Below, piece after piece: positions 54,169 through 57,100 of a stretch of 64,000 nt of DNA (its first letter is position 1; each line of letters starts with the position of its first letter). A model generated the notes under the pieces. It did not search any database and was not told the DNA's origin. It saw only the letters and a program-made list of their open reading frames with translations. The translations under genes were made by a program, and so were the position numbers. This DNA comes from Amphiscolops sp. MND2022 (taxonomy: Eukaryota), in contig OZ076409.1 in assembly GCA_964187785.1 (NCBI GenBank), positions 59,150,001-59,214,000 on the forward strand, read 5' to 3'.

Positions 54169-57100
54169 GCCTAATTGTTGTGATAAACTTATTAAATAGT
54201 TTCCGGTGATATGACTACTGAAGTAGACCCTGAACAACAATCAAGACTGGGTTCCTGTGACACCAACTACTATCCCACAATCTCTGAGTTGCTGGAAAGC
54301 AGTGGTCAAGATGTACAGAAGTTTCTAGCCAAAACCAAAAAAGACACTCTAGTGTGCATTCTACGAGAAGCAATCGCTCAACTCAGGAACAAATCACTAT
54401 GTCTGATAGCAAATAACATTGCTGAGATCAAAGTTACCTAGAAAAAGCTGTATTTAAACAAACACTGTCGTCCCCACAGCCCACGACAGATCTGGACAAC
54501 GAATCTTCAAATGCCCCAATAGTTAAGCTTAGTACAAATTCTCTGAAATCTTCTGATATTTCTTATAGAAACAAAATTCGTGTCTCTTGTGTACCAGAGC
54601 AGAACAGTGACCTTAATAATTTTAAAAGATCAATGGCAGATAAAGTGTAAGTTGAACAAATTCTTGAGAACCTGGGCGAGCCCGTTGAAATACGGGACGT
54701 TTACCGGAAAGGTGCTTTCAGAACAGATCGCAAAAGAACAATAATTGTTGAACTTAGTAACCCTTGGGATGTCCGAAAAGTAGTTGGGGCTGCCATCAAA
54801 AATAAATTTTTCGAGCAGAGTGGTTTTCTGGTTACATATGATCTCTCTCCCAAAGATCAAGAAATTGAGCAGAAATTGCTCGCCAATCATTTTGAATTTT
54901 TGAAATCACGAACAGACAAGAAAGGAATCAAAATCCGAGGATTGAAACTCTATAAAGACGAGGTTGAAGTCAAACTGGAGTGACAATCAATTGAACTGTC
55001 TATTCTATACGGCAACATGCGGAGTCTCCTATCAGTTCAAAGGCGCCTTCTTTTTTAAACCTTGCATTCTTTTACAACGCTGATATCATCTGTGCATCTG
55101 AAACTTGGTTTGACTGTAACGTTAAAAATCCATTTCTCGATACCAATTACGTTGTGGTTACAAGAGCCGACCGCCAATATGGTCCCCATGGAGGTGTTCT
55201 GGCCAAAAACTACCTTATGTGCAAAGAAATAAACCTCAATGTTGATTTCGCTACTGCTTGTAGAGTTAGCACCATATCCTCCTCTATACCAATAGCTGTA
55301 TTCTACAACCCACCTGAGAAAAGCCCATACAGCCTAACAGAAGCATGTATTCTGAAAATTTTTGATGTGTTGAGATGCCATGCAAAAACCCTTGATCAAT
55401 TGATAATTTTTGAAGATTTCAATTACCCGAATATAGATTGGGAAAGTCTCACCGCTCCCGAATATGACGGTTCCGGTTTTTGCTCTTATCTCTTCAAACA
55501 TTCATTACTGCAGCTTGTTGATGAACCCACACATAAATCAGGTTCCCTCTTGGACTTAGTGATTACAAACACTAATAAAAGCCAGATCCGTGAAGTGAAC
55601 AACAATTATTTCTCTGATCATCGTTGAATCTGTGTGACAACCAATGCCTCCTTGCTAAAATCTGTCTCACCTATCACTGATAAAGTCCAACAATACAGTT
55701 TCTCTCAGGCAAATGTTGAATCTCTTCGTCTATCCTTCGCACAAAACTTCTCTTACGTTTTTCAACAGAATGAAACTTTTATTCGAAACTATTTATTTCT
55801 TTTCTATTCTTAATGAATTCATTCCTAAAAAACGTTCCCGCAGGCAACAATATCCCCCTTACTCTTCCTCCCACAGCATTCACCTATTGAACCAGCTTCG
55901 AACAGTACAAAAGAAAAAGGACATGAATAATCGAGTAGAATCCAGTCTTCGAGAAAAGCTATCAATCTCACTTGAATTAGATACAGTCGTCTTCTTAGAG
56001 GCATTCACATCTCACAACAAAACTGGTCTCAACATGTGCTACAAGCTAATAAAAAGCCTGTCAAATTGTACTGACATTCCCTTGCAGGTGACATGGGACG
56101 ATGCCACAGCCAGTGAATACTATCAAGTTGCAAATTTGTTCAATCTGTATTTTGTTTCAGTTTATAACAAATCCACCAAACTGAAAGTATTCGAGCAACC
56201 TGTTGAAAACGGCCTTGATTCTTTGGAATTCATGCATGAAGAAGTCTCCTCTGCATTGAAAAATGCATGTAGTGGGAACTGTCCAGACAATTTTCCGGTA
56301 AACTCCTCCAATGCCTGGCAAATGACCTTTCGCCTCATGTGACCGTTTAATTCAACCACATTTCCAAAACTGGCATTTTTTCCTAAACAATGGAAACAAT
56401 CGTATGTTACCCCGCCCTATAAAAAAAGAAATCGAAATTGTGTTTCCTCCGATCGTCCAATCAGTAATCTCAGCAAGCTTTGTCTAGTCCTGGAGCGCTT
56501 AGTCTTCGATAAATTATATCAATTTGTTAAAAAAGCAATATCTTCTCAACAGTTTGGCTTCATGAAACGCAAATCAACTACTTCACAACTTCTCGACTTT
56601 GTGATGGATGCATACCGCTGTAATGATAATTAGGAAATCATGTACACACTATACGTGGATTTTGCAAAGGCATTTGACAAAGTCTCCCATCCTATCCTGC
56701 TTGAAAAACTCCATCGCTTCGGAGTCTGTGGACATTTGTTACAATTCTTCAAGTCTTACTTATCCGAAAGATACCAATGTGTGAAAATACACGGTCTGTT
56801 ATCCTCAGCTCTGCCAATAACAAGTGTTGTACCCCATGGCTCCATTTTGGGTATCCATGGTATCCCAGTCGAAAAATGCTTGATAAATTAGAATTGTTTC
56901 AGAAACAAGCAACTCAATGGATACTTGATATCAAAGACCATCACCAACGCCTTAGAGCTTTGAAGCTGTTTCCCATCTCGTGTCAACTTCAGATGGCTGA
57001 CCTCACATTCCTCAACAAGCTTCTCAACGAGCGCTATGAAGTCGATGTCTCAACTATTATCAATACCAAACGGCCCTCAGCCTATGATTTACGAGTAAAC

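Follow-up and report, generated by a model that had tools for sequence, protein, structure and literature searches.

Host spliced-leader relics as the genomic 5' ends of dispersed LINE families in the acoel Amphiscolops sp. and their possible role as self-renewing trans-splice acceptors

The window, meaning the whole 64,000-nt stretch of Amphiscolops sp. MND2022 DNA that was analyzed (contig OZ076409.1, positions 59,150,001 to 59,214,000), contains a LINE on the plus strand, inserted into a host repeat whose left half lies at 54028..54167 (+) and whose right half resumes at about 57772. Motif matching and empty-site comparison identified the exact 5' end of the LINE as a 32-nt relic of a spliced-leader (SL) exon (54168..54199, +), consisting of a 5' A and a 31-mer (54169-54199); no match to the 31-mer, two-mismatch variants included, was found in 100 shuffles. 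Within the relic, CTAAT occupies nt 4-8, and AG occurs solely at nt 1-2 and nt 31-32. An 11-nt 5' UTR, TTTCCGGTGAT (54200..54210, +), separates it from the ORF1 ATG at 54211 and includes TTTCCGG, the AG-less form of a TTTC(AG) element found after the SL in most families. The ORF1 remnant (54211..54983, +) carries stops and a frameshift, and its C-terminal part is 37% identical to ORF1 of L123, an intact SL-headed relative with a PHD-type ORF1. The broken ORF2 remnant (54984..57349, +) retains an APE endonuclease (PF14529) and an RT-like part and has lost about 150 codons internally, and a 381-bp (TAG)n 3' tail follows (57391..57771, +). The stops, frameshifts and internal deletion make this a dead copy. 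The APE domain, the RT part recognized through its similarity to L123, and the (TAG)n tail identify it as an APE-RT LINE.

Three empty paralogs of the host repeat (~52440-52500, 53480-53540 and 19850-19910) fixed the insertion point between ...GAGGGCGAGC and GTGCATACACC and bore out the original prediction that the 31-mer lies exactly at this point, 11 nt ahead of the ORF1 ATG. The LINE overlaps the empty site by AGC on the 5' side and by GT on the 3' side, and no target-site duplication was present relative to the empty paralogs. A PHD ORF1, a microsatellite tail and no target duplication are features that we take to be compatible with the CR1/L2 group.

Further SL relics were present in the window. 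A second LINE (38565-42298, APE+RT) has the 3'-terminal 10 nt of the SL, TATTAAATAG, at its head (42298-42289, minus strand), followed by TTTTTCAG and located 14 nt ahead of its ATG, as had been predicted; an empty site at ~22290-22330 places this SL remnant (42289..42298, -) at the insertion point with a 2-nt overlap, and the whole SL is present in a relative, L116. Two-mismatch variants of the 31-mer occur at 20461 and 20665, where they had been expected; the sequences behind them, originally described as unrelated, could be identified. The first belongs to an SL relic followed by 142 nt (20492-20633) of a host methyltransferase mRNA (20460..20633, +), the second to an SL relic on the decayed 5' end of a third LINE family (20664..20800, +; relatives L155-L157), which resembles the 5' end of the RT-bearing L099. 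The methyltransferase parent gene reads ...ctgacttcag/ATAAAAAATGG at G000:C5:25099105 and 25105799 (a slash marks a junction throughout), with no SL there. Because the SL is joined to the methyltransferase piece exactly at the parental AG, which is the acceptor of the parent gene, this retrocopy is direct DNA evidence of the leader spliced onto a host mRNA. Read as a whole, 20460-20800 consists of the SL-host-mRNA piece, about 30 nt, and an SL-headed LINE, and may have arisen as a single chimeric insertion when a template jump led from LINE RNA to a host mRNA.

Other features of the window were also recorded. A 5'-truncated RT fragment (PF00078) of another LINE family lies at 58117-59118, and its relative L130 is headed by SL/TTTCAG. 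A host gene with ankyrin-like repeats occupies 59520-62000; its putative intron ends, judged by eye, are TTTCAG and TTTAATAG, the latter like the SL end. Satellite arrays of ~84 bp in opposite orientations (22900-25150 and 32240-37990) lie in a large inverted region (22.9-34.5 kb).

The 31-mer is identical to the trans-spliced leader published for the acoel Symsagittifera roscoffensis, a species in which 30.2% of genes were reported to be trans-spliced and an SL RNA gene was described; the relevant passages of that paper mention neither genomic SL relics nor LINEs (PMC9911081). The original prediction of a spliced leader is supported, the motif being a published host SL that is also joined to a host mRNA retrocopy at the parental AG. 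The sequence of the predicted 31-nt leader stood and its length did not: an A precedes the 31-mer both in the SL genes and in 80 of the 90 dispersed copies, which makes the SL exon 32 nt long. The leader as published lacks the 5' A and has an extra 3' A (PMC9911081), whereas the genes here end in ...AAATAG/GTAAG without that A, and the published leader appears to be shifted relative to them.

Exact SL copies numbered 1678 genome-wide, comprising 1192 SL/GTAA copies, which are SL RNA genes, and 486 non-gene copies. The search for SL RNA genes was therefore successful: those listed have a GT donor, a 10-bp stem and then AATTTTTGA, which, going by the Sm consensus, we take to be an Sm-like site. 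The fold of the SL RNA is of the SL type, with the donor on the first stem (z -1.93), and no Rfam SL model matched the gene. SL RNA and 5S rRNA genes alternate on the same strand in a 904-bp tandem unit (L021:822-940, 1500-1640, 1727-1845). No upstream promoter motif common to SL and U2 genes was seen by eye, and the U2 of this genome has the standard branch-pairing sequence. The motif is not confined to LINE 5' UTRs, since the SL RNA genes and the methyltransferase retrocopy carry it as well.

Divergent retroelement families were also found within the SL-5S array itself (L193, L234, L235 and L236; G000:C1:16.23-16.37 Mb), inserted after SL nt 18 with a target duplication of ~18 bp. The longer class measures ~4.5-5.2 kb and has an ORF1 and an RT-bearing ORF2 of 920-990 aa (APE+RT by Pfam in L234), traits that are presumably Tx1/L1-like; the shorter class is 1.45-2.0 kb, ORF1-only and HAL1-like. 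The Tx1-like elements after SL nt 18 form a set separate from the SL-headed LINEs and quite different in look. No report of an SL-gene-targeting APE-type lineage was found in open PMC/bioRxiv text.

Genome-wide, 403 SL copies were followed by A, C or T. Among the first 100 of these as listed (from contigs 1-3; for 30 of them the downstream sequence covered just 1.5 kb, and a few were local duplicates), 95 were LINE 5' ends and five were unassigned; the 95 comprise 89 sense matches to long ORFs from the same set, minus L147 (too distant), plus 7 of 11 others assigned by 5' end or ORF1. RT identity among sixteen representative SL-headed LINEs was 12-67% (median 28%, one gappy row excluded), compared to 15-25% to a Tx1-like outgroup. 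By Pfam, the SL-headed LINEs include APE+RT elements with PHD ORF1s as well as single-ORF elements without APE; the C-terminus of the latter is presumably CRE/RLE-like, judging from its motif. These single-ORF, APE-less, CRE-like elements (L139, L241, L265-L294) are dispersed and SL-headed, and many show SL/G plus a pyrimidine-rich stretch. TTTC directly follows the SL at 62 of 90 loci, often in AG-less form (TTTCCGG, TTTCCT, TTTCAT, TTTCAA), and is not universal, since several families have A or G after the SL. Among the X1 contigs, a single contig carried SL/TTTCCGGTTGTG plus flank, and the window copy was not covered.

Three known routes to such structures were considered and rejected. Insertion targeted to SL genes, as in NeSL and in the CRE/SLACS elements of trypanosomatids, does not fit LINEs that are dispersed, whose flanks resemble neither the SL gene unit nor each other, and whose empty site in the window is another repeat. 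In U6-L1-type chimeras the small RNA is carried past the donor site or has variable break points; the SL ended at the donor position in the LINE loci inspected, which argues against such a template switch. Recycling of the dinoflagellate type should leave tandem truncated relics, and the genome-wide search for these gave one match at one mismatch, the flank of L063. An ambiguous case is L307, in which a near-complete SL tandem is joined at the AG of SL nt 1-2 and could reflect re-splicing or an RT jump. At 5' junctions, duplicated pieces of the SL are frequent immediately ahead of the leader (L297, L299, L301, L307, L308, L248, L222 and L256). The 90 loci gave no cap signal in the form of an untemplated G ahead of the SL (G in 5/90 at that place and in 8/90 one base further), nor did they show 5' transductions, the upstream stretches in common being, by eye, local duplicates or common repeats.

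LINE families were then searched without selecting for the SL, all in one assembly, in which lost or polymorphic masters are invisible. Of 34 matches in the window family, 20 extend to the 5' end; they represent 15 independent insertions, and each of the 20 has the leader or a remnant of it, in one case only 8 nt. The SL was present on 54/54 5'-complete copies of the MPPKRQ family (51 exact over the last 17 nt), on 72/73 of the MPTTRT family, the remaining one being degenerate, and on 34/35 of the MPSARN family; the search patterns for these three families had D at the first place, so that non-SL copies with C there escape. Among the first 30 of 152 protein matches in the CRE-like group, 17 had the leader, 10 were truncated inside the element (two of them one locus), one lay at a contig end and two, L289 and L291, started at body +1 with only G or AG. 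The ORF of L291 is intact, and L289 and L291 could be SL-less sources. Master copies with an outron and an AG acceptor, which the original prediction had proposed to look for, did not appear: no native outron was common to the 20, 54, 73 and 35 5'-complete copies of the four families or to the CRE-like 30. Successive subfamilies are all SL-headed, and in the CRE-like group the majority of intact copies begin with the SL. As no outron-bearing master was found, the SL-headed copies themselves appear to be the sources.

Two junction forms occur within single families. In MPTTRT, with a pattern that allowed 0-6 nt between leader and body, 43 of 55 copies read SL/TTTCAG/ACGC and 10 read SL/ACGCG, joined directly at that AG; two were variants, and none of the 55 had a gap of 1-5 nt. 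Three subfamilies and a fourth, nested one can be told apart by diagnostic columns, and the short form is present in each of the three (5, 3 and 1 copies versus 11, 12 and 16 long), with no variant common to more than two short copies. On a tree of the 49 copies kept (six were dropped for low cover or partial duplication), the short form needs 5 changes, at least 4 of them forced. This is more clustered than in shuffles (mean 8.3 changes; 5 or fewer in 0-2 of 500), which leaves room for some sources of short form or for rates that differ between sources. Another 11 AGNNNNAG sites within the MPTTRT body served as a control: precise loss of 6 nt occurred in 0 of 710 copy-sites, and no deletion of at least 3 nt recurred in the body. 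In MPSARN, 6 of 35 rows (5 independent) skip 27 nt to TTTTCAG/, in at least three diagnostic groups. The presence of both forms across subfamilies and diagnostic groups indicates that several successive sources each gave both, as alternative acceptor choice in RNA would. A further junction, that of L113 (SL/TTGTG, with TTTCCGG lost), was not counted as splicing, since a 3-nt microhomology could explain it. Copies with a common SL variant were not sisters: such pairs had 0-2 rare body variants in common, against a background of up to 3 (one pair was left out, and L247 was dropped for low cover).

The short forms point to trans-splicing that recurs on the RNA used for retrotransposition, and the LINEs of this genome were, with high probability, reverse-transcribed from SL-trans-spliced RNA. 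The original prediction to this effect is strongly supported by SL heads recovered without SL selection, by the recurrent short forms and by the 0/710 control. Since the sources appear to be SL-headed, the head would have to be restored in each round, and we consider it somewhat probable, from the arrangement of the motifs, that the relic SL of the source copy serves as acceptor and thereby restores the same head in every cycle. A source copy would be transcribed from upstream, by host read-through or initiation in the flank, and flank plus relic SL would act as an outron. The CTAAT (A 25 nt before the end) would serve as branch point and the terminal AG of the relic would mostly be used, with the downstream pyrimidine/TTTC element recruiting acceptor factors to it; CTRAY at 18-30 nt with no AG behind was seen in 1.2% of shuffles, a post hoc and modest figure. 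A fresh SL would replace the old one at the relic AG, so that tandem relics would not build up. About one copy in six shows the pattern expected if splicing had instead used the TTTCAG acceptor that comes next, 6 or 27 nt further downstream. LINE target-primed reverse transcription, which copies RNA to its 5' end, would then fix the head in DNA. All 32 nt of the SL are the same even in families with RT identities of just 12-28%, and this constancy, together with the uninherited SL variants, would favour renewal. If the relic is a self-renewing acceptor, copies landing in transcribed DNA could become sources, and the predicted dependence of these LINEs on host transcription rather than on an internal promoter is plausible. 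In its widest form, the proposal is that across several LINE clades (APE-type and CRE-like) the host SL has replaced both promoter and 5' end of the element, the relic being a complete, self-renewing trans-splice acceptor; we hold this to be an even chance.

The relic SL might instead be an internal promoter: captured once by trans-splicing, it would as DNA, together with the TTTC behind it, direct Pol II initiation at its own first base. Most RNAs would then be left unspliced, and trans-splicing would account only for the short forms, which are in the minority. Exact SL heads and the lack of tandem relics and outron masters would be explained equally well, and long-form copies are equally expected from an unspliced transcript starting at SL nt 1. 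The SL exon has a promoter role in Ascaris SL genes, which counts for this alternative, as does the lack of an upstream motif common to SL and U2 genes by eye. A promoter role was also proposed for relic DinoSL (PMC6050394). However, identity over 32 nt across distant families would exceed what factor binding needs, no SL variant is inherited within a subfamily, TTTC fits the consensus of an acceptor and does not follow the SL in the SL genes, and the short forms would need a 38-nt outron with a branch point 7 nt from the cap. We regard a promoter role as possible but unlikely.

It is improbable that one or a few hidden source loci per family, with a native promoter, an outron and an ...AG/TTTCAG acceptor pair, gave rise to SL-headed copies that are dead ends. 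L289 and L291, which begin at the body with only one or two SL-like letters, and the 1/73 and 1/35 copies without a clear SL would fit such masters, but no common non-SL upstream sequence was present in the 20, 54, 73 and 35 5'-complete copies, though nested subfamilies imply several successive sources per family. An origin without splicing has the lowest probability, in our estimate very slight, and is largely refuted. Here the SL would derive from targeted insertion into SL genes or from an RT that changes template to SL RNA, and slippage at AG microhomology would account for the short forms as deletions. This genome does contain elements that target SL genes, and the partial SL duplications show RT jumps at 5' junctions; yet the flanks of the SL-headed LINEs bear no relation to the SL gene unit or to one another, the window LINE occupies another repeat, the SL ends at the donor position with no SL intron behind the leader in these loci, and neither the control deletions (0/710) nor a recurrent body deletion of at least 3 nt was observed.

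In every round, a non-LTR retrotransposon has to recover its complete 5' end and a promoter. This genome suggests that many unrelated LINE families leave the renewal of the 5' end to host trans-splicing, with 5' UTRs down to 11 nt. If this is true, relic SLs join internal promoters and self-cleaving ribozymes as an answer to the LINE 5'-end problem. The two junction forms within one family would be a fossil record of acceptor choice in the cells of heritable insertion, so that trans-splicing in those cells could be measured from DNA alone. Two ideas become testable: that relic SLs act as acceptors or promoters, as debated for dinoflagellates, and that SL trans-splicing lets transposons live on host transcription. 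In practice, the ~486 exact non-gene SL copies confound the mapping of SL reads and the counting of SL genes in acoels.

Acoel SL trans-splicing, dinoflagellate SL-relic retrogenes and the SL on full-length Hydra CR1 RNA were already known from the passages cited here. The open PMC/bioRxiv titles and abstract starts searched contained no report of LINE families that have the SL as their standing 5' end in the genome, or of a relic acceptor that does not stack, Repbase and subscription journals lying outside that search. In Hydra, full-length CR1 RNA with SL-B1 was described and ~30% of TE Iso-Seq reads carry an SL; this is at the RNA level only, and the passages concerned make no claim of the SL as a genomic 5' end (PMC12220107). 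The full-length RNA of C. elegans Cer1 is not trans-spliced, according to the passages concerned (PMC3315495). NeSL retrotransposons target SL genes, and in them the SL adjoins the element 5' end, as it does here, but, as described, they sit inside SL genes with a target duplication (PMC4640811). The LINEs here are scattered, lack such a duplication and bear the entire exon as far as the donor site. The geometry of SL/TTTCAG, with an AG 6 nt upstream of TTTCAG, matches the adjacent 3' splice sites NAGYYYNAG of C. elegans, where the poor proximal AG without consensus is preferred in the germline; as described in that paper (PMC4484395), this is cis-splicing in a nematode and only an analogy for acoels. 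A further likeness is to the SL-relic retrogenes of dinoflagellates and Perkinsus ("mRNA recycling"; PMC3229502, PMC6050394; Slamovits and Keeling 2008 as cited there), in which the SL is likewise fixed in DNA by retroposition and a promoter role of the relic is debated. In those passages, a new SL is spliced at an AG inside the relic, which is why truncated relics stack up (PMC3229502), and host genes are the cargo; here, by comparison, the carriers are mainly autonomous LINEs (95 of the 100 places examined) in an animal, and tandem relics are essentially absent.
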